In this document: in pieces, positions 11,365-61,211 of the stretch
Layout of the letters: each line of letters opens with the position of its first letter
Position numbering within the stretch: position 1 is the first letter of the stretch
Source of the DNA: an uncultured Methanosarcinales archaeon
GTDB lineage: Archaea > Nanobdellota > Nanobdellia > Woesearchaeales > GW2011-AR9
Length of the DNA: 64,000 bases
Assembly: GCA_964527395.1 (NCBI GenBank)
Contig: CAZGQD010000002.1
Span: 24,245 to 88,244, forward strand
Direction of reading: 5' to 3'
The notes under the pieces: model-generated
What the model saw: only the letters and a program-made list of their open reading frames with translations
What the model was told of the DNA's origin: nothing
Databases searched by the model: none
Position numbers and translations under genes: made by a program

Positions 11365-11587
11365 AAGAAATTAGTAGCGTCTCACTACTGGCAATGGTTG
11401 CTGCTAAGCAACCTACGAACACTTCGTGTGAGTATGTTATTCAACGAATAAACCAAACAACGAGCATTTTTGTTCATGAAATGGACAAAAATATAAAGCG
11501 AAGTGGTCACGCCTGCACTACTTGGTGAAGTATGAACCAAGTAACGAGAGCTTTGCTCGAACTTAAGTCTGACACTACTAATTTCTT
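11365..11587 (+). repeat. structured palindromic element, copy A (long form)
   Basis: Closing stem AAGAAATTAGTAGCGTC / GACACTACTAATTTCTT. Core blocks are ACTACTGGCAAT, AACAACGAGCATTTT, AAAGCGAAGTGGTCACGCCTGC and TAAGTCTGAC, plus internal hairpins. It starts 21 nt after the RSH stop codon. The strand given is the orientation of the consensus, not proven transcription. Confidence 0.8.
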
Positions 11588-13756: not shown

Positions 13757-15019
13757 ATGATTCAAAAAAACATCCTAAGACAGATAGTAAATAGACAAAA
13801 AAACATCAAATATCCTATTTCAAACCCTATTAAAAGAGAAATTGAAAATGAAGTACTAAAATATTTTAAAGATAATAGAATAATCATTATTACTGGCCTT
13901 AGACGTACTGGAAAATCCACTCTTTTAAGACAATTGATGCAAAAACAAGAAAATTATTGCTATTTCAACTTTGAAGAAGAAAAAATCTCAGATTTCAGAG
14001 CAGAAGATTTTGAAACTTTGAACGAAATTTTAATAGAAATCTACGGTGAATCAGACACATATTTCTTTGACGAAATCCAAAACGTTCCTAAATTTGAATT
14101 GTTTGTACGGCGCTTACAAGATCAAGGCAAAAAAATAGTCATAACTGGATCAAATGCTTCTCTTCTTAGTAAAGAATTAGGAACAAGATTAACTGGAAGA
14201 TACAAAGCCTTCGAATTATTCCCTTTTTCTTTTAAAGAATTTTTAACCTTCACAAAAAAAGACTTTCAAACAGAAGATTTATACGATACTAAAAAAATAG
14301 TCCAGCTAAAAAAATCATTCCAAAAATACCAAAAAACTGGCGGTCTACCTGGGTTTTTGCAACTAAAAGACCATGATTATGTAAAAACATTGCTTCAAAA
14401 CATTCTTTATAGAGATATAATCACCAGATACAAAATAAAAAAAGAAAAAACCATTATTGATTTAGTTATTCTTCTAACCAGCAACATATCAACATTATTT
14501 AGTTTTAATTCACTTAAAAAAACCCTTGGACTAGCTAATGCTATAACTGTAAAAGAATACATCTCATACCTATCAAACTCATACCTTTTCTTCCAATTGG
14601 AAAAACACGAATTTTCTCTAAAAAAGCAACTCATTGCTCAAAAAAAGATTTATTTAATTGATCCTATCTTTAAAATCACTTCTGGTTTTAATTTCTCAAA
14701 AAATGAAGGTAGAATTTTAGAAAACTTAGTTTTCCTACAACTTAAGAGACAAAAAAAAGAGATTTACTACCACAAAAATAAACATGAATGTGACTTTGTA
14801 ACAAAAAAAGGCTTAAAAATCACTGAAGCTATCCAAATCTGCCACATCTTAAATGAAAAAAACATGCAAAGAGAAATAAACGGTCTTTTAGAAGCTATGA
14901 AAGAACATAAACTAAAAACAGGCACCATCATAACCTTCGAACAAGAAGAAGAAATCATAAAAGAAAATAAAAAGATAAATGTTATTCCAATATACAAATA
15001 CCTCTTAAATAAAAAGTAA
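13757..15019 (+). CDS. AAA+ ATPase of the COG1373 / DUF4143 type (paralogue)
   Basis: Walker A ITGLRRTGKST, Walker B YFFDEIQ, C-terminal ECDFVT...AIQICH. The start at 13757 (MIQKNILRQIV) aligns with the paralogue's MNKEIIKQLV and lies 23-30 nt after TTTATAAA. The track ORF starts at 13718. Confidence 0.8.
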   Translation: MIQKNILRQIVNRQKNIKYPISNPIKREIENEVLKYFKDNRIIIITGLRRTGKSTLLRQLMQKQENYCYFNFEEEKISDFRAEDFETLNEILIEIYGESDTYFFDEIQNVPKFELFVRRLQDQGKKIVITGSNASLLSKELGTRLTGRYKAFELFPFSFKEFLTFTKKDFQTEDLYDTKKIVQLKKSFQKYQKTGGLPGFLQLKDHDYVKTLLQNILYRDIITRYKIKKEKTIIDLVILLTSNISTLFSFNSLKKTLGLANAITVKEYISYLSNSYLFFQLEKHEFSLKKQLIAQKKIYLIDPIFKITSGFNFSKNEGRILENLVFLQLKRQKKEIYYHKNKHECDFVTKKGLKITEAIQICHILNEKNMQREINGLLEAMKEHKLKTGTIITFEQEEEIIKENKKINVIPIYKYLLNKK

Positions 15020-15025
15020 AAATAA

Positions 15026-15256
15026 CCAAAACAACTGTATTTTCTTCAAAATCGTCCAAAACAAGCTCCTTTTCGTCTAAATCAACCAAAATAACCCTTA
15101 TTTCACCTAAATAGACATAAACAGCCTCCTTTTCGCCTGAATCAACCAAAACTAGCTCCTTTTGTTCCAAATAGACAAAAATGGCCTTCTTTTAAGCTAA
15201 AACAGCCAAAACAACCTTCTTTTCAAAAAATACGGCAAATATTGCTTTTAAAATAG
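15026..15256. repeat. tandem array, about 7.7 units of a degenerate 30-bp repeat
   Basis: Units start every 30 nt from 15026 (CCAAAACAACTGTATTTTCTTCAAAATCGT). The next four are CCAAAACAAGCTCCTTTTCGTCTAAATCAA, CCAAAATAACCCTTATTTCACCTAAATAGA, CATAAACAGCCTCCTTTTCGCCTGAATCAA and CCAAAACTAGCTCCTTTTGTTCCAAATAGA. The last ones are CAAAAATGGCCTTCTTTTAAGCTAAAACAG, CCAAAACAACCTTCTTTTCAAAAAATACGG and a partial unit. The array is contiguous, with no spacers. Confidence 0.85.
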
Positions 15257-17354: not shown

Positions 17355-17488
17355 GGAAATTAGCAGCGTCCCCTACTGGCAATTAAACTAAAAACAAGAA
17401 CACAACCTCAGCATTTTTCAAGCAACGACTTGAAAAATTAAAAGCGCCAAGGTTTGTACCTGCGATAAGTCTGACCCTGCTAATTTCC
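17355..17488 (+). repeat. structured palindromic element, copy B
   Basis: Closing stem GGAAATTAGCAGCGTC / GACCCTGCTAATTTCC, CTACTGGCAAT, hairpin TTTTTCAAG-CAACGA-CTTGAAAAA, TAAGTCTGAC. It begins 57 nt after the stop of the 1948-aa gene. Confidence 0.8.
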
Positions 17489-20500: not shown

Positions 20501-23391
20501 TTTATTGGATCAAACCCAGTATGTCCTGACTTACCTGCTCCATGACCTAAAGCTGTATAACCTGGCTTTCTAGGATTCTCACAAATTTGCTGACATGTTT
20601 CTGATCTAGCTCCACAAAACCCTTCTGTTCCTGGTGCTTGATAAACTTGAATTTTATCAACAACTGTACCTGCCCCAATTGCTGTAAGACCTTTATCAAT
20701 AACTTCTAATTCATAAATTCCTTTAGCTTCATCAATTGCCTTACTATTCCTATACAAAGTAGCAGAGATTGTAGTCCCTGACTGTTTATATTCTTCTGGA
20801 ACTAAATAACAAGTATCTCCTGGAATCTCCAAATCACTAATATCTTCACTTAACGCATACCCATCTACATTATTTTTAACATACTTCTGACAATTCTCTA
20901 CTTCCTCAAGCGGAATACAAGCCCCTGTAGCCCCACACTGTTTCTGCTCTAAAATCACTGACTGAATTTCATCTTCTGTTTTAGTTTCTGTCCATCTAGC
21001 AGGCGAACTATGACAAAAGGTTCTGTCACATGTCCATCTGTAAGCTTTCTCTAGCCGACTCTCAAGCTCCCACAACCTAGCAGTGTTCGGGCAATAATCA
21101 TCAAGAATCTTACTTTGATAATCTTCTGGCAACTTATGATTAGGAGCATTAATCTCAGGATGACCAGCTTCTATCAATTTATCCCAGCTTTCAATAGTAC
21201 TCTCTAAAAACAATTGATTTTGTAAAACTCCAACTGGACAAGCATCTTCCTCTCCTCCAGCAAGCTTTTCAATAGTTCCAGCTACCCCTTCAGTCTTAGA
21301 AACAGTAAACCGAAGTATCCGAACCACAACTTTGCTACCAAAAGACAAATAACATCCAATAGAAGTCAATCGAACAGCCTTCTCTAAGTAAGGGAGTACC
21401 TTATCAATCTTCTCAATAGTCCATGTAGTTGAATCAATCACGCCTTGAAGCAATTTGTCAGCCTTCAAATCTTCAATATCAAGAGGAGCATCTACAAAAT
21501 AAGATAAATCATAACAACTTGTTTGAGTCTTTGAAGATCCTAATGCACCATTTGCATCACGTTCTTGATAATTCACAGTAACTTGTAGTGGAAAAACAAT
21601 CATTCTGTCACTATACATATTCCAATAACTCTCATCACTATCACTATAATCTTCTGTAGGCGCTAAATTCCAAGAAAGGTAATGCGAAGTCTTAGCTCCA
21701 TTTGAAGCTACTTTAGGTTCGTTAGGCAAAATCGCACATCCAACTCCAAACTCATCATCTACCATGCTTTGGGTACACGCTTTCTCAAACCTAACTGAAT
21801 TAATTTGATATGCTGCATCTGTTTCAGACCCAGTTGATAAATCACTTGTTGCACTACCTTGCCCTTGATAGTCCATTGTAAAAATAGCAGTCACTTGCTC
21901 TCTACCTTCATCAAGCAATGTCGGATCAAGCTTCAACGGCAACTGATAATTAGGATCATCTGCAATCAAAAAATCAAAATCGGTAGAATAACAACTGTTC
22001 ACAATAACTTGGTCTTTAAAATACCCTGCCTTTCCACTTGCATCTACTGCAATAATATAGATATAATATGAAAAACTTGTAGCTGACCCTGCTGAACTAA
22101 CTCCATTAATTACTTCATTTTCAAGTCCAGATGGAACTACATTAACTGCAAAATCATCTAAAGAAAAAGCTCCACCATTTTTTAAATTCACATTACTAAA
22201 CACAAACTTCCCTTCAGAATCAGCCTCAACCATATCAAAAACATCACTTTCACTAAAAGTCAACTGCTGATCATAAGTCAATGTTCTATAAACATACAAA
22301 TAAACTTCCGCGCCAGCTTCAGTCTCTCCAAATATATCTGTTTCAGCTCTGTTTTGGTAATACTCTTTTCCTTTACTAAATTCAGCAGAAACTGTCGGTT
22401 CTTTTGTATCTGATACTACTTCAGCTTCAACCTTAGAAGAAAGCCCAACTAAATCTGTAGCAACTACAACAATAGAATTCTCTCCTTCCTCAAGCGAAAC
22501 AGACTCAGAAAACCCACCAGCACTTTCCAAAGAAACAGAAATCTTCTCTTCACCATTTACAGTAACCAAAACCTCGCTAGCTTCATCTACATTTCCACTG
22601 ATATCAATAGATTTCTCAGACGTATAAGAAGAAATTGTATCAACAACTAAAGTAGGATGACTATTGTCACTAACAACTGTCACGCTATATTCTTCTAACT
22701 GATCTCCAAGGCTAGCTTCTAAGCTAACAACATTACTTTCTCCAGCAACAAGTGGTGCATTTGATATTGCAAAAAGCCCATCTGTCCCTACAACATCCTT
22801 AGCAAAATAACCACCATTTACATATAATCTTACTTCAGTTCCATACGCAGCTGACCCTGTAACTGTAATAGAATCTCCTGCGATAAGTTCATCAATTTCA
22901 TCAACTTGTAAATTTATACTAGCAGAATAATCAACTTCTTCACTACTAGTATCTTCTTCACCAGAATCAGCCTCTTCACTCTCACTTGTATCTTCAGTCT
23001 CCTCAGCAGCATCTGTTGTAAAACTATAATATGATCCAGAATTGTCATCCAAAACCTCTTCATCCCCAGCTACACTCATCACCGAATAATAATATTCAGT
23101 CCCTCCTTCCAAACCACTAATATCAAACTCATGCGAAGTCACTGCATCTGAACTAGAAACCTCTAAATCTAAATTAGTTGCATCTGTTCCATAAAACACA
23201 GTCCCTGAAGCCTCTTCATCTGTCTCCCATGAAACTGTAGCTGTAGAAGAACCAACATTGGAACTAGCAGTATCACTAATACTAAGCGCATACGTTATTG
23301 GCAGGTTTAAAAACAAAACTACTACAAACACTGCAAAAAACCTAGTCCAATTCTCCTTACTTTTTCCAAATACCATTACAATACCATTCAC
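17545..23391 (-). CDS. giant secreted Cys-rich surface protein (1948 aa) with N-terminal FN3-like and Ig-like domains
   Basis: Uninterrupted 5.8-kb ORF with signal peptide FFAVFVVVLFLNLPITYALS. FN3-like STATVSWETDEEASGTVFYGTD...YYYSV. Repeated Ig-like segments (ITVTGSAAYGTEVRLYVNG, IDISGNVDEASEVLVTVNG, FGETEAGAEVYLYVY). Then about 1400 aa rich in Cys, Gly, Asp and Tyr. Confidence 0.85.
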   Translation of the reverse strand: MNGIVMVFGKSKENWTRFFAVFVVVLFLNLPITYALSISDTASSNVGSSTATVSWETDEEASGTVFYGTDATNLDLEVSSSDAVTSHEFDISGLEGGTEYYYSVMSVAGDEEVLDDNSGSYYSFTTDAAEETEDTSESEEADSGEEDTSSEEVDYSASINLQVDEIDELIAGDSITVTGSAAYGTEVRLYVNGGYFAKDVVGTDGLFAISNAPLVAGESNVVSLEASLGDQLEEYSVTVVSDNSHPTLVVDTISSYTSEKSIDISGNVDEASEVLVTVNGEEKISVSLESAGGFSESVSLEEGENSIVVVATDLVGLSSKVEAEVVSDTKEPTVSAEFSKGKEYYQNRAETDIFGETEAGAEVYLYVYRTLTYDQQLTFSESDVFDMVEADSEGKFVFSNVNLKNGGAFSLDDFAVNVVPSGLENEVINGVSSAGSATSFSYYIYIIAVDASGKAGYFKDQVIVNSCYSTDFDFLIADDPNYQLPLKLDPTLLDEGREQVTAIFTMDYQGQGSATSDLSTGSETDAAYQINSVRFEKACTQSMVDDEFGVGCAILPNEPKVASNGAKTSHYLSWNLAPTEDYSDSDESYWNMYSDRMIVFPLQVTVNYQERDANGALGSSKTQTSCYDLSYFVDAPLDIEDLKADKLLQGVIDSTTWTIEKIDKVLPYLEKAVRLTSIGCYLSFGSKVVVRILRFTVSKTEGVAGTIEKLAGGEEDACPVGVLQNQLFLESTIESWDKLIEAGHPEINAPNHKLPEDYQSKILDDYCPNTARLWELESRLEKAYRWTCDRTFCHSSPARWTETKTEDEIQSVILEQKQCGATGACIPLEEVENCQKYVKNNVDGYALSEDISDLEIPGDTCYLVPEEYKQSGTTISATLYRNSKAIDEAKGIYELEVIDKGLTAIGAGTVVDKIQVYQAPGTEGFCGARSETCQQICENPRKPGYTALGHGAGKSGHTGFDPIKTDDAKVATCFNQTGAVTERGHVKGELVDANGQQLSGELFYAGYSSDCFIGDDLEFYQCVCEPKKGSEDKVYTVREAVRKDEESGATEEYHYRQDQVFSESNSKFGTYYSDKRYYKERDFSAAFGQDYALDMLRTAENKKVAMIDPNTQFLSAYQTMCLENIWGQFTMLRGILDGLRTCAVEAKYTEFQDMGMCKQIFSQHVCGLVYKAITFASNQCSPYGFGDFGKEGSLFDGKVADFSSSIEPGLQSTIDDMQDDYGDAVLSQYFGGGAQGIAQSICLAAFGYDFPLGLDAFAEAALTIETKSYPLVYPKERVFSNYDPQGLTAVYNYKVGAVFSAGCPIDNYKTYLKCIGPEDQGNPGVDTSCDGEGCDCLTATGNSQFENEKVYYLDGGSSVSYVNSGELVDIQMQMPQRINSHYRYDHVVLELNVDTTKADIDNCFEEGYKTSTGGKFYYPIKDNSAPGVFECSAGLSTDATYDCDIGTCYTQTDGTFSCPGLSSIFYGEEGLSYFQAPYIQCYDDKTGLWLDCETPNLFLDEDDITVRPSIYTDGAGYCMKMDVNGAGVQADDQILTIPTGAAGLMQPTISLGKVNSEMFGEYSNAIKLDSSRSHEGCEELKDVKVPSTVSRERNIEFDYQLIDDKYELTVPKDVTVLTGGYEPTDDDGGKLTKSGTSTFELSEINAVKFGYDGFEFTNVLGSAGKVGTTECEYETQRAAKSTSRDEANIGVKFSLMHKDQSDGCYNAYQTVANTGLGEVTVSESILVQKNEIDVSTGDSSSIYEYFVAKDYSRVVSEAAQLIEAYPSHLNEAVGIYYYIASLVMQSGDSDIGSSDVKSRVETMLDRFFLREDASGGKLGAFSSSVQEDGEFQKIRAYNCQFAKVIGKSDKYGEGSVNGYHCDESRSYAGSAGSSSSTGVPLTTLCGSAAGTIGLKDTVPSDFSSYSCMLIENADDESTCKSFVDYLADGYQNYETYGCGNGRELCCKS

Positions 23392-25733: not shown

Positions 25734-25852
25734 GCACTGTCCACTCACTGGCACTCCCATTCAAAACAAGACCTAAACAACGAGCATTTTTCAAGCAGCG
25801 ACTTGAAAAATTAAAAGCGAAGTGGTCACGCTTGCAGTAAGTCTGACAGTGC
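25734..25852 (+). repeat. structured palindromic element, copy C (compact form)
   Basis: Closing stem GCACTGTC / GACAGTGC, CACTCACTGGCAC, CAAGACCTAAACAACGAGCATTTT, hairpin TTTTTCAAG-CAGCGA-CTTGAAAAA, AAAGCGAAGTGGTCACGCTTGC, TAAGTCTGAC. It begins 83 nt after the stop of 25935..27116. On the - strand it is followed by T-runs (TTTTTTGTTTTTG). Confidence 0.85.
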
Positions 25853-31463: not shown

Positions 31464-31479
31464 ACATAATTTAGCCAAA

Positions 31480-31609
31480 AAGAAGATTGTAGTGCCGCCC
31501 ATCGAGGCCCTAAATTACAATCCAAAAAATAAACAAACTGAAAATCCTAAGGATTTTACTGATATTAATTGTAATTTAGATCTGGGCCGTGCCGCACTAC
31601 TATTTTCTT
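31480..31609 (+). repeat. structured palindromic element, copy F (divergent, highly palindromic)
   Basis: Closing stem AAGAAGATTGTAGTGC / GCACTACTATTTTCTT resembles copy A. The 3' block TAGATCTGGGCCGTGCC resembles copy D TAGATCTGACCGCGCC. Internal inverted repeat CTAAATTACAAT / ATTGTAATTTAG and central hairpin AAAATCC-TAA-GGATTTT. It begins 17 nt after the stop of a + strand gene. Confidence 0.55.
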
Positions 31610-31804
31610 TGCATACAAAAACACCCTTTTTTTTCTTTTTTTAAACCTCAAACCAACAAAACACCCATATTTTCCCCACACCTCTTTGGCTTAACAGCCA
31701 TAGTACACACACGACCACATTTGGGCCCATTGACCATTTTGGGCCCTCTTTTTTCTCCATTTTCAATATAAACACTTTAAATATTAGCTAAAAAAACAAA
31801 AACC

Positions 31805-34791: not shown

Positions 34792-34930
34792 GGAAGAAAA
34801 GGACGCCGTCTCTTACTGGCAATTACATCCAACTCAAGACTTAAACAACGAGCATTTTCCAAGTCATGCTTGGAAAATTAAAAGCGAAGTGGTCACGCCT
34901 GCTCTAGATCTGACCGCGCCTTTTCCTTCC
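34792..34930 (+). repeat. structured palindromic element, copy D
   Basis: Closing stem GGAAGAAAAGGACGCCGTC / GACCGCGCCTTTTCCTTCC, CTTACTGGCAAT, CAAGACTTAAACAACGAGCATTTT, hairpin TTTTCCAAG-TCATG-CTTGGAAAA, AAAGCGAAGTGGTCACGCCTGC. It lies in a convergent intergenic region, 80 nt after the HAD gene stop and 63 nt after the stop of the transglutaminase-like gene. Confidence 0.85.
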
Positions 34931-35995: not shown

Positions 35996-36121
35996 AAAAA
36001 TTCCAGCAAATCACCAATTTATAAGCATTTCGACACAAGAACACATTAAAAAAATCTATACTCAATCTAAGAAGCTAACATTATTAAAAAATAAAAAAAA
36101 GAAAATAAAAAACTTCAGAAT

Positions 36122-36556
36122 CTACCTTCTTCTACGTTTAGCAGGTTTTCGCTTTGCAGCTTTCCGCTTAGTAGTCTTCCTCTTAGCACTTTTACGCTTA
36201 GTGGTTTTTCTTTTAGTAGTTTTCTTCTTTCGAGCTACTTTTCGCTTAACTGATTTTTTCTTCTTTACAGCTTTACGCTTTGTAGTCTTCTTCTTTCGAG
36301 CAACTTTTCTTTTAGTAGTTTTCTTCTTAGTGGTTTTTCGCTTTGTAGCTTTCCGCTTAGTAGTTTTCTTCTTCTTAGTTGCTTTTCTTTTAGTTGTTTT
36401 CCGCTTAGCAGTTTTCTTCTTAGCCGGTTTCTTTCGAGCCACTTTACGCTTCTTAGCTACCTTTTTCTTAGTAGTTTTTCTACGTTTGGTGGTCTTCTTC
36501 CGAGCTACCTTCCGCTTAGTGGTTTTACGTTTTGTTGTTTTTTTACGTGCTGCCAT
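36122..36556 (-). CDS. entirely basic Lys/Arg/Thr repeat protein (histone H1-tail-like)
   Basis: 144 aa made only of TTKRK / VARKKK-type repeats (MAARKKTTKRKTTKRKVARKKTTKRRKTTKKKVAKKRKVARKK...RRRR), with no globular segment. Confidence 0.55.
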   Translation of the reverse strand: MAARKKTTKRKTTKRKVARKKTTKRRKTTKKKVAKKRKVARKKPAKKKTAKRKTTKRKATKKKKTTKRKATKRKTTKKKTTKRKVARKKKTTKRKAVKKKKSVKRKVARKKKTTKRKTTKRKSAKRKTTKRKAAKRKPAKRRRR

Positions 36557-43452: not shown

Positions 43453-44049
43453 ATGTTAAACAAAAAACAACTTGAACAAATAAAAAAATTTGCAATAGAT
43501 TTAGATTGGAATCAGGCTTTTGAAGGAGCAGCAAAAGGAAATAAACACCTTTTCAGGATAGTTGGCAAAGCAAAATTGCTAGCAAAAAAAGAGAATTCAT
43601 CTCAAAAACAAAAAATCAATCTCAACATCATTGAAGCAGGTGCATGGTTACATGATTCTAATCTAGAACAAACAATCTTGGGTGATACTCTTACAAACAA
43701 AGAAAAGTTAAAAAAATTCTTTAAAAAAATTAAAATAATAAAAGAAGACCAAGAAAAAATCCTTCATTGCATTGAATCACATGATGGAAGAAAAAAAGCC
43801 AAAACAATAGAAGCAAAAATTGTTCATGACGCTGATACTTTAGAAAAAATGGGCCCATTAGGTATAATTAGGGAAACTTGGAAGCGTTGCCAAGCTGGTT
43901 GGAACACAGAAAAGATCATTGAACACTTAAAAACTCATCTCAAAAAAAGAGAATCCAAAATATACTGGTCCGTAAGTAGAAAGTGGAACTTTTCTTACGG
44001 AACTGTGTCTCGAATCCGTAACCAAGTTATAGAAAATAGTTACGGATGA
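43453..44049 (+). CDS. HD-domain phosphohydrolase
   Basis: AWLHDSN (HD), IESHDG and IVHDADTLEKMG. The last about 30 codons are encoded by the left 98-bp inverted repeat. Confidence 0.75.
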   Translation: MLNKKQLEQIKKFAIDLDWNQAFEGAAKGNKHLFRIVGKAKLLAKKENSSQKQKINLNIIEAGAWLHDSNLEQTILGDTLTNKEKLKKFFKKIKIIKEDQEKILHCIESHDGRKKAKTIEAKIVHDADTLEKMGPLGIIRETWKRCQAGWNTEKIIEHLKTHLKKRESKIYWSVSRKWNFSYGTVSRIRNQVIENSYG

Positions 44050-44056
44050 GTATATA
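43959..44056 (+). repeat. left copy of perfect 98-bp inverted repeat
   Basis: AATATACTGGTCCGTAAGTAGAAAGTGGAACTTTTCTTACGGAACTGTGTCTCGAATCCGTAACCAAGTTATAGAAAATAGTTACGGATGAGTATATA is the exact reverse complement of 54365-54462 by hand comparison. Confidence 0.95.
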
Positions 44057-54140: not shown

Positions 54141-54365
54141 TCAATCCAAAACACTATATTGTTCTATCTTTCTTACATATGGCTTCTCACCTTTCTCAAG
54201 CAAGGGATACTCTATTTCTCCTACTTGGATAAAAGTAGATCTTCTCCCTAACCTTCCATGCCCTAAATCAACTGGATAAATTACAATCTTCATTCTCCCA
54301 AAATGATCTCTCAAAAGCTGCAGTGAACTATCCATAACTGCATCCCTAATCCCTTCAAAAAGCAT
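54141..54365 (-). CDS. hypothetical protein (74 aa)
   Basis: The first base of its ATG is the innermost base of the right 98-bp inverted repeat. Confidence 0.45.
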   Translation of the reverse strand: MLFEGIRDAVMDSSLQLLRDHFGRMKIVIYPVDLGHGRLGRRSTFIQVGEIEYPLLEKGEKPYVRKIEQYSVLD

Positions 54366-54462
54366 ATATACTCATCCGTAACTATTTTCTATAACTTGGT
54401 TACGGATTCGAGACACAGTTCCGTAAGAAAAGTTCCACTTTCTACTTACGGACCAGTATATT
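54365..54462 (-). repeat. right copy of perfect 98-bp inverted repeat
   Basis: Exact reverse complement of 43959-44056. It overlaps the last 17 nt of gene 54446..54703. Confidence 0.95.
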
Positions 54463-54800: not shown

Positions 54801-55003
54801 GGCGCGCTTGCCCCCTCACTGGCAATTACATTCATCTTGAGATCATTTCCACGAGCATTGTTGCTGACAAGCAACCTCGAAAATTTCTTGAATTTTCCGC
54901 CGTTGTGACTAAAAGGAGCAAAACTTAGTGAAGAATGAACTAAGTCCCGAAAGCAACGCTTGAAGACATAGTAAGCACAATGGAATGTACCTGCACTAAT
55001 TTC
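54801..55003 (+). repeat. structured palindromic element, copy E (long, divergent)
   Basis: CTCACTGGCAATT, ACGAGCATT, hairpins GTTGCT-GACA-AGCAAC and ACTTAGTGAAGAATGAACTAAGT (homologous to the copy A hairpins), GTACCTGC (as in copy B), and 3' ACTAATTTC. A possible outer pairing AAATTAGT (54733-54740) and GAGCTC (54721 / 55009) would extend it to 54721-55014. Confidence 0.6.
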
Positions 55004-55070: not shown

Positions 55071-55221
55071 ATGGAAAAATAAATGAAAAGGCTCTTCTCC
55101 ACGTTCATGGAAACCAAGGCTTTCCAGACGCATAATCAAAGATTCTGCATTCGTTCGTACCTCACTTAGGTCGAATGATAAAGCTCTAATGAAAAGATCT
55201 CTTTCTACGATCAACGCCCCC
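55071..55221 (-). repeat. structured palindromic element, copy R2 (inverted orientation, degenerate 5' arm)
   Basis: GGCTCTTCTCCACGTTCA, CGTACCTCACTTAGGTCG, AGCTCTAATGAAAAGATCTCTTTCTACGATCAACGCCCCC align with copy R1. It carries a 48-nt insertion, and the G-rich closing arm has decayed to A-rich sequence. Confidence 0.65.
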
Positions 55222-55258
55222 GAATAAATTTAGGACAGCGCCAGAAAAATACACTAAA

Positions 55259-59168: not shown

Positions 59169-60263
59169 ATGAAACTCAGCACAGTCCCTAAGCTTCTAAG
59201 AGTCCACCAATGGTATAAAAACCTAGTAATCTTCCTAGCATTGTTCTTCTCAAACAACCTTTTCAATATAACTGATCTAACACTAACTATTCTAGGCTTC
59301 ATTTCACTATCATTAGCAGCTTCCTCAGGCTACATCATCAACGATATTAAAGACAAAAAGCAAGATCAATTACACCCTGAAAAACGCCTAAGACCAATTG
59401 CAAACAAAGAAATCACAAGCACAGCAGCTGCCATTCTCTCAATAGCACTCCTAGCAGCATCCCTAACAATAGCCCACCAGCTTTCACCACTTTTCCTCTT
59501 AGCAATAGCAGCATACTACACTTTAACAACCCTTTACACTTTCCTCTTGAAACACATAGTTGTTGCAGACATCATTACTATCAGCACTCTTTTCGTTATC
59601 CGAGCCATGAGTGGTGCCTACATTATCAACGTCCATGTCTCCCCATGGTTAATCTTGTGCCCATTCTTCTTAGCTTTAATGCTAGCTGCCGGCAAAAGAT
59701 ACGCCGAACTAAAGCTCCTAGACTCAACAAAAACAAGATCAAACAACAAAGAAAATATCACCTCAAAATCCACCTCCAGCAATGTAGAAATCATTTCGGG
59801 GGCGCCTCTGCAGAACAAGACCACCAAATCAAGACCAAACGACCTGAGTGAACAAAGTGAGCGAACGTGGAGAAGAGCCAATTCAGCCTCGCCCCGAGTT
59901 AATGATCTCTACATTGCCAATAAAAAAAAAAACATAATAGAATCAAAAGAAACTAAGGCAGAAAAGATAAGATCCACCTTGAAAGATTACACAACTAACA
60001 ATGCTAAAACCATCATCCTAATTGCTACTATCCTTTTCATCATCTCATATAGCATCTACACCCTCCAGCACCAAAAGAACCTCTTGATCACAACCCTACC
60101 TTTCGCTCTATTTGCAACAATCCGATACTTCCTTCTAACTACTAGTACAAACATAAAAAACACCATTTTGGCAAGAAAACCTCACAAAATCATCAAAGAC
60201 AAACACTTAACAATAGATATTTTGATTTGGATAGTCTTAGCAATCACTATTCTTTACTTTTGA
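59169..60263 (+). CDS. UbiA-family prenyl/phosphoribosyl transferase (decaprenyl-phosphate phosphoribosyltransferase-like) with a long inserted loop
   Basis: VHQWYKNLVIFLALFFS, YIINDIKDKKQDQLHPEKRLRPIA (NDxxDxxxD) and AGKRYAEL...IRSTLKDYT. About 75 extra hydrophilic residues lie between AEL and IRSTL, and they include repeat copy R3. Confidence 0.8.
   Translation: MKLSTVPKLLRVHQWYKNLVIFLALFFSNNLFNITDLTLTILGFISLSLAASSGYIINDIKDKKQDQLHPEKRLRPIANKEITSTAAAILSIALLAASLTIAHQLSPLFLLAIAAYYTLTTLYTFLLKHIVVADIITISTLFVIRAMSGAYIINVHVSPWLILCPFFLALMLAAGKRYAELKLLDSTKTRSNNKENITSKSTSSNVEIISGAPLQNKTTKSRPNDLSEQSERTWRRANSASPRVNDLYIANKKKNIIESKETKAEKIRSTLKDYTTNNAKTIILIATILFIISYSIYTLQHQKNLLITTLPFALFATIRYFLLTTSTNIKNTILARKPHKIIKDKHLTIDILIWIVLAITILYF
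59796..59898 (+). repeat. structured palindromic element, copy R3, inserted in frame inside the UbiA-family CDS
   Basis: Its reverse complement CTCGGGGCGAGGCTGAATTGGCTCTTCTCCACGTTCGCTC...TCAGGTCGTTTGG...TTCTGCAGAGGCGCCCCCGA matches copy R1 with 2 mismatches over the first about 37 nt. Closing stem TCGGGGGCG / CGCCCCGA. Confidence 0.8.
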
Positions 60264-60973
60264 TCAAAAGGACTTACAACAATGTCACTTCCTCCTACAA
60301 GGTAAGGTCCTCCAGAAGACTTTTTCTCTCCAGAACCTAAAGACCCACTTGCTTCAGGTGGAACTCCAATTCCTACAAGATATTCATCTGTAGCTGCTGC
60401 CAACTCTTCTAACTCTCCTAACTTAGTATTTGCTATATCATTAGAGATCATACCTTTTATAGAAACATAAGGTATAACTACACCTGAAATTGGCATTGCC
60501 ACTCTAAAAGCCATATTTAACTCTGGAACATTATAAGATACAACTGCTCCAAAAATCCCTAAAGAAATAGCAGTCAAAGAAGCAAGAAAAGTAGCGTTTT
60601 TAAAATCATTTTTCCAACCAACTATTGTAAATCTCTCAGGATCAAGATAAGCAACACCTACTTGATTCATAGATTCAACAGTACTTCTAACTTTCATATC
60701 AAAAACTGGATCTGGTCCTGGTGCAAAAGCCCTACCAAAAAAAGTATCATATTTAGCTAAAATTGAAGCAACCCTATCTGTATAACTATCATTTCCAGCA
60801 GCTACAGCTCCTGCAATAGGATTTGAATCATAAAAAGCAAGTATCCCTTCATCTCTACTACCCACAACACCAGGTAACCTCCTAAAACCTTCATTAAAAG
60901 ACGCTTCAGAAAGCGCAATGTAATCCAATTTGCCTTTCAAAGTATCAAGTACCTTAGCTTCTTCATATTCCAT
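60254..60973 (-). CDS. hypothetical membrane-associated protein
   Basis: ORF with central hydrophobic segments (FLASLTAISLGIFGAVVSY, AMPISGVVIPYV). The likely start is MEYEEAKV at 60973. Confidence 0.55.
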   Translation of the reverse strand: MEYEEAKVLDTLKGKLDYIALSEASFNEGFRRLPGVVGSRDEGILAFYDSNPIAGAVAAGNDSYTDRVASILAKYDTFFGRAFAPGPDPVFDMKVRSTVESMNQVGVAYLDPERFTIVGWKNDFKNATFLASLTAISLGIFGAVVSYNVPELNMAFRVAMPISGVVIPYVSIKGMISNDIANTKLGELEELAAATDEYLVGIGVPPEASGSLGSGEKKSSGGPYLVGGSDIVVSPFDQK

Positions 60974-61047
60974 AAAAACAACTAACACAAAATATCTATT
61001 TAACTATTTCTATCTTAAAAACTACAAATTACTCATCCTTTCAGACA

Positions 61048-61193
61048 CTGTAGAAGATCTCGCTTCGCTCGATGGGGGCGAGGCTGAATAGGCTCTTCTC
61101 CACGTTCACTCGTACCTCGTTCAGGTCGTTTGCTGTAGCTCTAACGAAAATGCTCTCTTTCTGCAATAGACGCCCCCCATACATCTTCTACAG
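61048..61193 (-). repeat. structured palindromic element, copy R1 (inverted orientation)
   Basis: Core closing stem ATGGGGGCG (61072) / CGCCCCCAT (61172-61180), plus an outer 11-bp stem CTGTAGAAGAT (61048) / ATCTTCTACAG (61183). The internal blocks are shared with R2 and R3. It lies between divergent genes, about 50 nt upstream of pheS. Confidence 0.8.
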
Positions 61194-61211
61194 CACCTTA
61201 TCCACAAAAGC

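Follow-up and report, generated by a model that had tools for sequence, protein, structure and literature searches.

A gene for a UbiA-fold membrane enzyme in a DPANN archaeon contains, within a single loop, an in-frame 135-nt copy of a small dispersed repeat, and the explanation that best fits our observations, and that we consider probable, is that a MITE-type insertion is translated as a loop extension of its host enzyme. The repeat has homologous copies and inverted termini, the inserted segment is absent from homologs of the enzyme, the reading frame through it is open, and the catalytic and invariant residues of the host protein are intact. We propose that a small non-autonomous repeat of the MITE type landed in the DNA encoding loop CL3 of a DPPR-synthase-like UbiA-fold enzyme. 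It would be transcribed and translated with the gene, with the mRNA keeping the element, and would give 45 residues of a 76-residue hydrophilic, positively charged extension off the cap loop, leaving the nine-helix core intact and the enzyme presumably still working. All coordinates are those of the window, the whole 64-kb stretch of DNA (64,000 nt) that was analyzed, unless another contig is named. The host organism is a DPANN archaeon, Woesearchaeota/Nanoarchaeia-like.

The host enzyme and the insert in loop CL3

The host gene and the parts of the insert are as follows.

59169 to 60263, + strand: host gene, an uninterrupted ORF of 1095 nt encoding 364 aa; UbiA-fold membrane enzyme, decaprenyl-phosphate phosphoribosyltransferase-like
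59721 to 59948, + strand: insert relative to all homologs, from alignments; 228 nt, 76 codons, D185 to K260
59721 to 59780, + strand: left A-rich flank of the insert, outside the repeat; 60 nt, 20 codons
59781 to 59915, - strand: repeat copy R3 within the host gene, in the orientation opposite to copy R1; 135 nt, 45 codons
59916 to 59948, + strand: right A-rich flank of the insert, outside the repeat; 33 nt, 11 codons

By profile and by its match to a solved structure, the host protein resembles a DPPR-synthase-like member of the UbiA superfamily. It matched Pfam UbiA (PF01040) at 3.8e-24 and Mycobacterium tuberculosis Rv3806c (PDB 8J8J) at 4.3e-30, with HMMER aligning the latter on both sides of the insert, and the NDxxD and GKRYAEL motifs are common to the two proteins. 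We assembled a set of 119 homologs, all 265–315 aa long and mostly from Woesearchaeota and Nanoarchaeia, which are 41–52% identical to the host protein over full alignments and at most 57% in local alignments; the closest reaches 54% identity in its best local alignment. In the resulting 120-sequence alignment, the host protein retains all 19 invariant columns on both sides of the insert (N58, D59, D62, D66, K176, and R177 are invariant in the 120 sequences), and the near-invariant columns that we checked are likewise intact on either side. An AlphaFold2 model built from the 120 sequences has a mean pLDDT of 88.9 and a pTM of 0.80, with a confident core.

To locate the insert, we used the spacing between the invariant residues R177 and Y274. 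This spacing is 96 residues in the window protein, and the equivalent spacing in the 119 homologs is 20 (n = 114), 24 (n = 4), or 18 (n = 1) residues, i.e., the insertion site is a loop that is otherwise nearly fixed in length. The preliminary description of this DNA had noted an unusually long loop here, and the alignments bear this out, delimiting the insert to D185–K260 and finding it absent in all 119 closest homologs; of the 76 extra residues (228 nt), however, the repeat accounts for just 45 (135 nt), the other 31 residues coming from the A-rich flanks. That description had also named what would overturn it, namely the same long loop in unrelated homologs or a loss of the similarity to R1 and R2, and neither was encountered. 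The loop peptide had no match in any other protein in a search of 5.8 billion. Judged by the loop lengths and the uniqueness of the peptide, the insert is best regarded as derived rather than ancestral. In close relatives we encountered neither an allele lacking the insert nor an empty site, and R3 is present in both assemblies.

The HMMER alignment to Rv3806c broke off, and then resumed, at chain residue 204. In the published topology of Rv3806c, CL3 lies between TM6 and TM7, and CL1–3 form a cytoplasmic cap closing on PRPP, CL3 itself moving toward the ligand when PRPP binds (PMC10994848). The break at residue 204, together with this topology, therefore places the insert in the cytoplasmic loop CL3 between TM6 and TM7, which answers the question, raised in the preliminary description, of whether it falls in a cytoplasmic loop. 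Rv3806c has about 10 residues at the insert site, whereas the window protein has about 85. The insert has a mean hydropathy of -1.33, is net positive (15 K+R vs 8 D+E), and is without a membrane-like stretch. AlphaFold2 renders residues ~200–270 as a helical protrusion whose tip is disordered, at a pLDDT of 46–71 in this region versus ~84–99 elsewhere. We suggest that the host gene is a natural experiment on the tolerance of the catalytic cap loop in DPPR-synthase-like enzymes.

Searches with the A-rich flanks returned only short low-complexity matches elsewhere. A long target duplication was rejected as their origin, the left and right flanks being without significant similarity to each other (427 of 2000 shuffles score as high). 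The right flank contains an A11 run (59922–59932, codons N-K-K-K-N) that is slippage-prone and coding, and is identical in both assemblies. Nor is an intein supported: in Pfam, UbiA alone scored above cut-off, without a Hint domain, and the inserted segment is hydrophilic and of low complexity.

A repeat with inverted ends and its four known copies

Besides R3, three copies of the repeat are known, two in the window and one on another contig; they are listed here with the ends of R3.

59781 to 59795, + strand: terminal inverted repeat of R3, one end, AATGTAGAAATCATT, preceded by GC at 59779–59780
59901 to 59915, + strand: terminal inverted repeat of R3, other end, AATGATCTCTACATT, followed by GC at 59916–59917
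61047 to 61194, + strand: R1, 148 nt, intergenic, between divergent genes
55084 to 55242, + strand: R2, decayed, without the 5' terminus and with an internal insertion of ~46 nt
L034:3971–4118: R4, 148 nt, on another contig of the same metagenome assembly

Contig L034 is scaffold_18971 of ENA assembly ERZ23498905, and the same assembly contains a contig (L001) that copies the right end of the window at 99.96% identity; the 4 SNPs between the two all lie outside the element.

An in-frame repeat within the uninterrupted ORF had been claimed before, and it is confirmed by two levels of similarity. First, positions 59859–59895 of R3 are 95% complementary to 61075–61111 of R1 over 37 nt. Second, homology to R1 extends over the full length: a global alignment of the reverse complement of R3 (59780–59916) with R1 (61047–61194) gave 107 identical columns, 83% of the ungapped ones, so that the two copies differ by 17% and by a net 13 nt of indels. 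A pattern of 33 nt, one position of it degenerate, matched the R3 and R1 sites only and matched no shuffle of the window. An nhmmer profile built from the R3/R1 pair returned its own copies at E-values of 4e-45 and 2e-38 and picked up R2 at 55084–55107 and 55147–55228 (E-values of 2e-8 and 0.0035). R4 is 89.6% identical to R1 over 134 nt. DNA pattern scans for further copies in GTDB species genomes, JGI metagenomes, and IMG/VR yielded only chance matches to a 17-nt core; those in the genomes and metagenomes lay in high-GC bacterial DNA.

The full copies (R1, R3, and R4) share an anatomy: they are 135–148 nt long, with terminal inverted repeats of 11–15 nt and an inner GGGGCG...CGCCCC clamp, and the conserved core GGCTCTTCTCCACGTTC is common to all copies. 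The termini of R3 (59781–59795 and 59901–59915) are complementary at 14 of 15 positions. Those of R1, CTGTAGAAGAT and ATCTTCTACAG, match at 11 of 11, with GGGGGCG/CGCCCCC as the inner clamp and AC on either side, and R4 has a perfect 14-nt inverted repeat, GCTATGTGAAAGAT (14/14). Compared with R1, the termini of R4 differ at two positions on both arms (TGTGAA vs TGTAGA); since the same two substitutions occur on both arms, the ends change together. In one common register, picked post hoc after several had been tried, a 2-bp direct repeat flanks each full copy (AC for R1, GC for R3 and R4). This points to a possible 2-bp target duplication, but GC is self-complementary.

These boundaries revise two earlier statements. 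The repeat is present where the preliminary description put it, but its true span is 59781–59915 (135 nt) and not 59796–59898 (about 103 nt). The term palindromic element overstates its structure: the 105-nt core taken from that description did not outperform shuffles in folding, whichever strand was used, whereas with the termini included the element folded better than shuffles (z of -2.0 to -4.1; -3.1 and -4.1 for that core segment with its termini). The repeat thus has inverted ends but is not a palindrome.

R3 and R1 are inverted copies ~1.1 kb apart, and between them lie the 3' portion of the UbiA gene and all of ORF 60254–60988. Recombination between them would invert this segment and split the UbiA gene; the segment has the same orientation in both assemblies. 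We also noted one-mismatch matches to the R1 terminal repeat TGTAGAAGATC at 23242, 26078, 29774, 31403, 37907, and 51046. Including the two termini of R1, the window holds 8 such matches versus 1.7 expected, which may be solo termini or a bias of coding sequence.

A second copy contributes coding sequence to a protein. We searched proteins with translations of several frames of three copies and obtained one foreign match, P0121 (200 aa; gene L034:3503–4105), whose last 43 residues and stop codon come from R4, that is, from R1-like sequence. P0121 has 126 homologs, mostly of 130–190 aa, and in these the matching ends at query residue 152–159. R4 starts at codon 157 of P0121, and this coincidence indicates that R4 replaced or extended the C terminus of the protein. 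R3 and R4 have the same orientation relative to their genes and lie in different frames, encoding unrelated peptides; hence there is no conserved peptide of the RPE kind. Coding sequence is thus contributed by two of the four known copies. Taken together, R3 and R4 suggest a role for MITE-type repeats in extending proteins of reduced DPANN genomes, much like that of RPEs in Rickettsia.

Reading frame and competing explanations

Of the six frames of R3, the translated one alone is free of stops, whereas every frame of R1 is interrupted. The sequence GTGAACG or ATGAACG of R1 and R2 is GCGAACG in R3, so that CGA stands in place of what would be an in-frame TGA. The other 867 nt of the gene have neither a frameshift nor a stop. 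On the sequence evidence, the open frame, the intact invariant residues, and the TGA-to-CGA change favor continued selection for an open, translated gene; this argument falls short of proof, as the master copy that gave rise to R3 may itself have diverged beforehand. Length bears on the frame as well. A unit of the size of R1 or R4 (148 nt) with a 2-bp duplication adds 150 nt, or 50 codons, and is frame-neutral. The 135 + 2 nt of R3 are not divisible by three, and further events in the flanks are required to account for the frame as it now stands.

The most serious rival, although we consider it unlikely, is that the insertion inactivated or crippled the enzyme, leaving a recent pseudogene in which the frame is still open by chance. 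The position of the insert lends this some weight: CL3 is the cap loop that moves toward the ligand during Rv3806c catalysis, a 76-residue insert there could impair catalysis, and no homolog has more than 24 residues at the site. The open frame taken alone is weak evidence against a pseudogene, given that 12% of shuffles of a 131-nt core of R3 (59783–59913) are stop-free in a given frame. When the whole 228-nt insert is shuffled, however, only 1.6% retain an open frame, and divisibility of the length by three is required in addition. Moreover, R3 has diverged from R1 by the substitutions and indels given above, yet the rest of the gene shows no frameshift or stop, every invariant residue is kept, including those downstream of the insert, and the TGA of both R1 and R2 is CGA in R3.

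Far less probable is a suggestion made in the preliminary description, that the element is removed at the RNA level. Under this explanation, it would be cut out post-transcriptionally at its terminal hairpin, like an intron, for example by the archaeal splicing endonuclease, and never be translated. A precedent is the Cbf5 pre-mRNA intron of Crenarchaeota, and broad-specificity splicing endonucleases occur in some DPANN archaea. The sense-strand RNA of R3 indeed has a long terminal helix (-39 kcal/mol, z of -3.1), but this helix contains a 1x1 mismatch and a 1x4 internal loop rather than two 3-nt bulges 4 bp apart. A scan of 59650–60010 for the canonical bulge-helix-bulge motif found none that brackets the element; the sole motif found, at 59670–59721, would delete the conserved GKRY motif, and we rejected a bulge-helix-bulge intron. 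Rfam gave no match to the element, with no family at gathering score in the whole window and none at E ≤ 1 around R3 and R1, and an RNA gene was rejected likewise. Excision of 135 or 137 nt would miss the loop length of the homologs, and 137 nt would also shift the frame; nor would an intron need the frame that is open throughout the element. Were excision by a relaxed-specificity endonuclease and a ligase to take place all the same, the element would be a mobile intron in a DPANN protein-coding gene, with the open frame as a fail-safe.

The least likely of all, barely worth entertaining, are the reverse direction, in which the loop is old and R1, R2, and R4 are copied fragments of it, and an assembly artifact: the known copies number just four and all come from this population, but the shared unit is bounded at all sites by its own inverted termini, unrelated to the gene, and the segment is absent in the 119 homologs, while two assemblies 4 SNPs apart agree base for base across the region and a typical read pair would span the element, which lies between unique flanks.

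We thus return to a MITE-type insertion translated with its host gene, for which the counterpoint is that the known copies are only four and that neither an empty site nor an allele lacking the insert was found. What the preliminary description had put forward as in-frame insertion into a coding gene, of the kind described for RPEs, is upheld by the nucleotide homology of the copies, the absence of the loop in homologs, the unique peptide, and the hydrophilic cytoplasmic location.

Known elements, the candidate mobilizer, and other features of the window

We compared the element with known families of small repeats. Like prokaryotic MITEs, it is small (135–148 nt, against about 50–800 bp), has terminal inverted repeats, encodes no transposase or other protein of its own, occurs in several dispersed copies, and shares its genome with an IS that has a DDE transposase. 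It differs in that the copy number seen is small and that the target-site duplication and the cognate transposase are candidates. Prokaryotic MITEs are mostly intergenic, and in-frame insertion or fusion of small repeats in bacterial host genes has been described for RPEs, REPs, ERIC, BOX, and Coxiella QMITE1 (PMC10969869, PMC3733652). In a census of archaeal MITEs, ~11% were intragenic and a Woesearchaeota genome was among the MITE-richest archaea (PMC11602168). Our literature search found no described case of a MITE insertion in a UbiA-family gene.

RPEs, in the summaries of Ogata et al. 2000 given in PMC10969869 and PMC3733652, are ~150 bp long and occur between genes and in frame in housekeeping genes. 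The window element is similar in size, has both intergenic and in-frame copies, and in R3 adds a peptide to a surface segment compatible with the fold (hydrophilic CL3, with the AlphaFold2 core unaffected). In contrast to RPEs, it occurs in a DPANN archaeon and not in Rickettsia, only two of its four copies are translated, and these are in different frames, so that R3 and R4 lack the one conserved in-frame peptide. REPs also lie inside genes and encode short peptides, and GTAG-tagged REP/BIME elements are mobilized by RAYT transposases (PMC3733652). The termini of R1 and R3 contain GTAG (TGTAGA). Nevertheless, we rejected membership in the REP/BIME group: the window unit is 135–148 nt with separate inverted termini rather than a 20–40-bp palindrome, its core folds like shuffles, R4 has TGTGAA and no GTAG, and no RAYT gene was seen, the neighboring transposase being of the DDE type. 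In-frame insertion of small repeats is already well known in bacteria, and R3 provides a clear-cut case from an archaeon. Its interest lies not in a new kind of mechanism but in its clean delimitation, its place in a catalytic cap loop of near-invariant length, and the second translated copy.

The element would have transposed, probably with a DDE transposase acting in trans, such as that of the IS5/IS4-type IS beside R4. This IS is 897 nt long, carries the 17-nt terminal repeat GGCGCTGTCCTAAATCA, and encodes a DDE_Tnp_1 transposase (PF01609, 6.9e-19). On L034 (4153–5048) it begins 34 nt to the right of R4, and a second, complete copy lies at L039:1324–2220. The 3' end of R2 (55226–55242) is a terminal repeat of the IS type, agreeing at 16 of 18 positions, and 0 of 3000 random 18-mers reached 15. 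Homology of the R1, R3, and R4 termini to the IS terminal repeat was rejected, as they match at 9–11 of 18 positions, a level reached by 7% of random 18-mers; the link to the IS therefore comes from R2 alone. From these sequence matches, we regard the IS as a candidate mobilizer of the repeat family. A tblastn search found no transposase in the 64-kb window. The ORF of the IS reads through the terminal repeat and stops in flanking DNA, so that the C terminus of the transposase depends on the site (281 vs 296 aa), and most contigs bearing P0121 end inside the IS, which indicates several IS copies.

The window has other repeats and structured segments, and neither a tRNA gene (ARAGORN) nor, as stated above, an Rfam family at gathering score was found in the whole 64 kb. 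A second intergenic repeat family, whose copies are 73–97% identical, consists of a hairpin, TTTTTCAAG..CTTGAAAAA, followed by AAAGCGAAGTGGTCACGC, and is found at these positions.

11439 to 11533: second intergenic repeat family
17410 to 17446: second intergenic repeat family
25744 to 25852: second intergenic repeat family
34812 to 34919: second intergenic repeat family
54815 to 54859: second intergenic repeat family

A long imperfect intergenic hairpin with G+C-rich arms occupies 31472–31617 (+ strand; MFE -40.4 kcal/mol, z of -5.4) and has no Rfam match. Tandem repeats at 36120–36544 (period 15 nt) and 15019–15228 (period 30 nt) are probably low-complexity coding sequence. Finally, a perfect 98-nt inverted repeat (43959–44056 and 54365–54462) brackets 10.3 kb. 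Each arm contains two small hairpins, CCGTAAG..CTTACGG and CCGTAAC..GTTACGG, and the pair may delimit either a segment that inverts or a larger mobile element.
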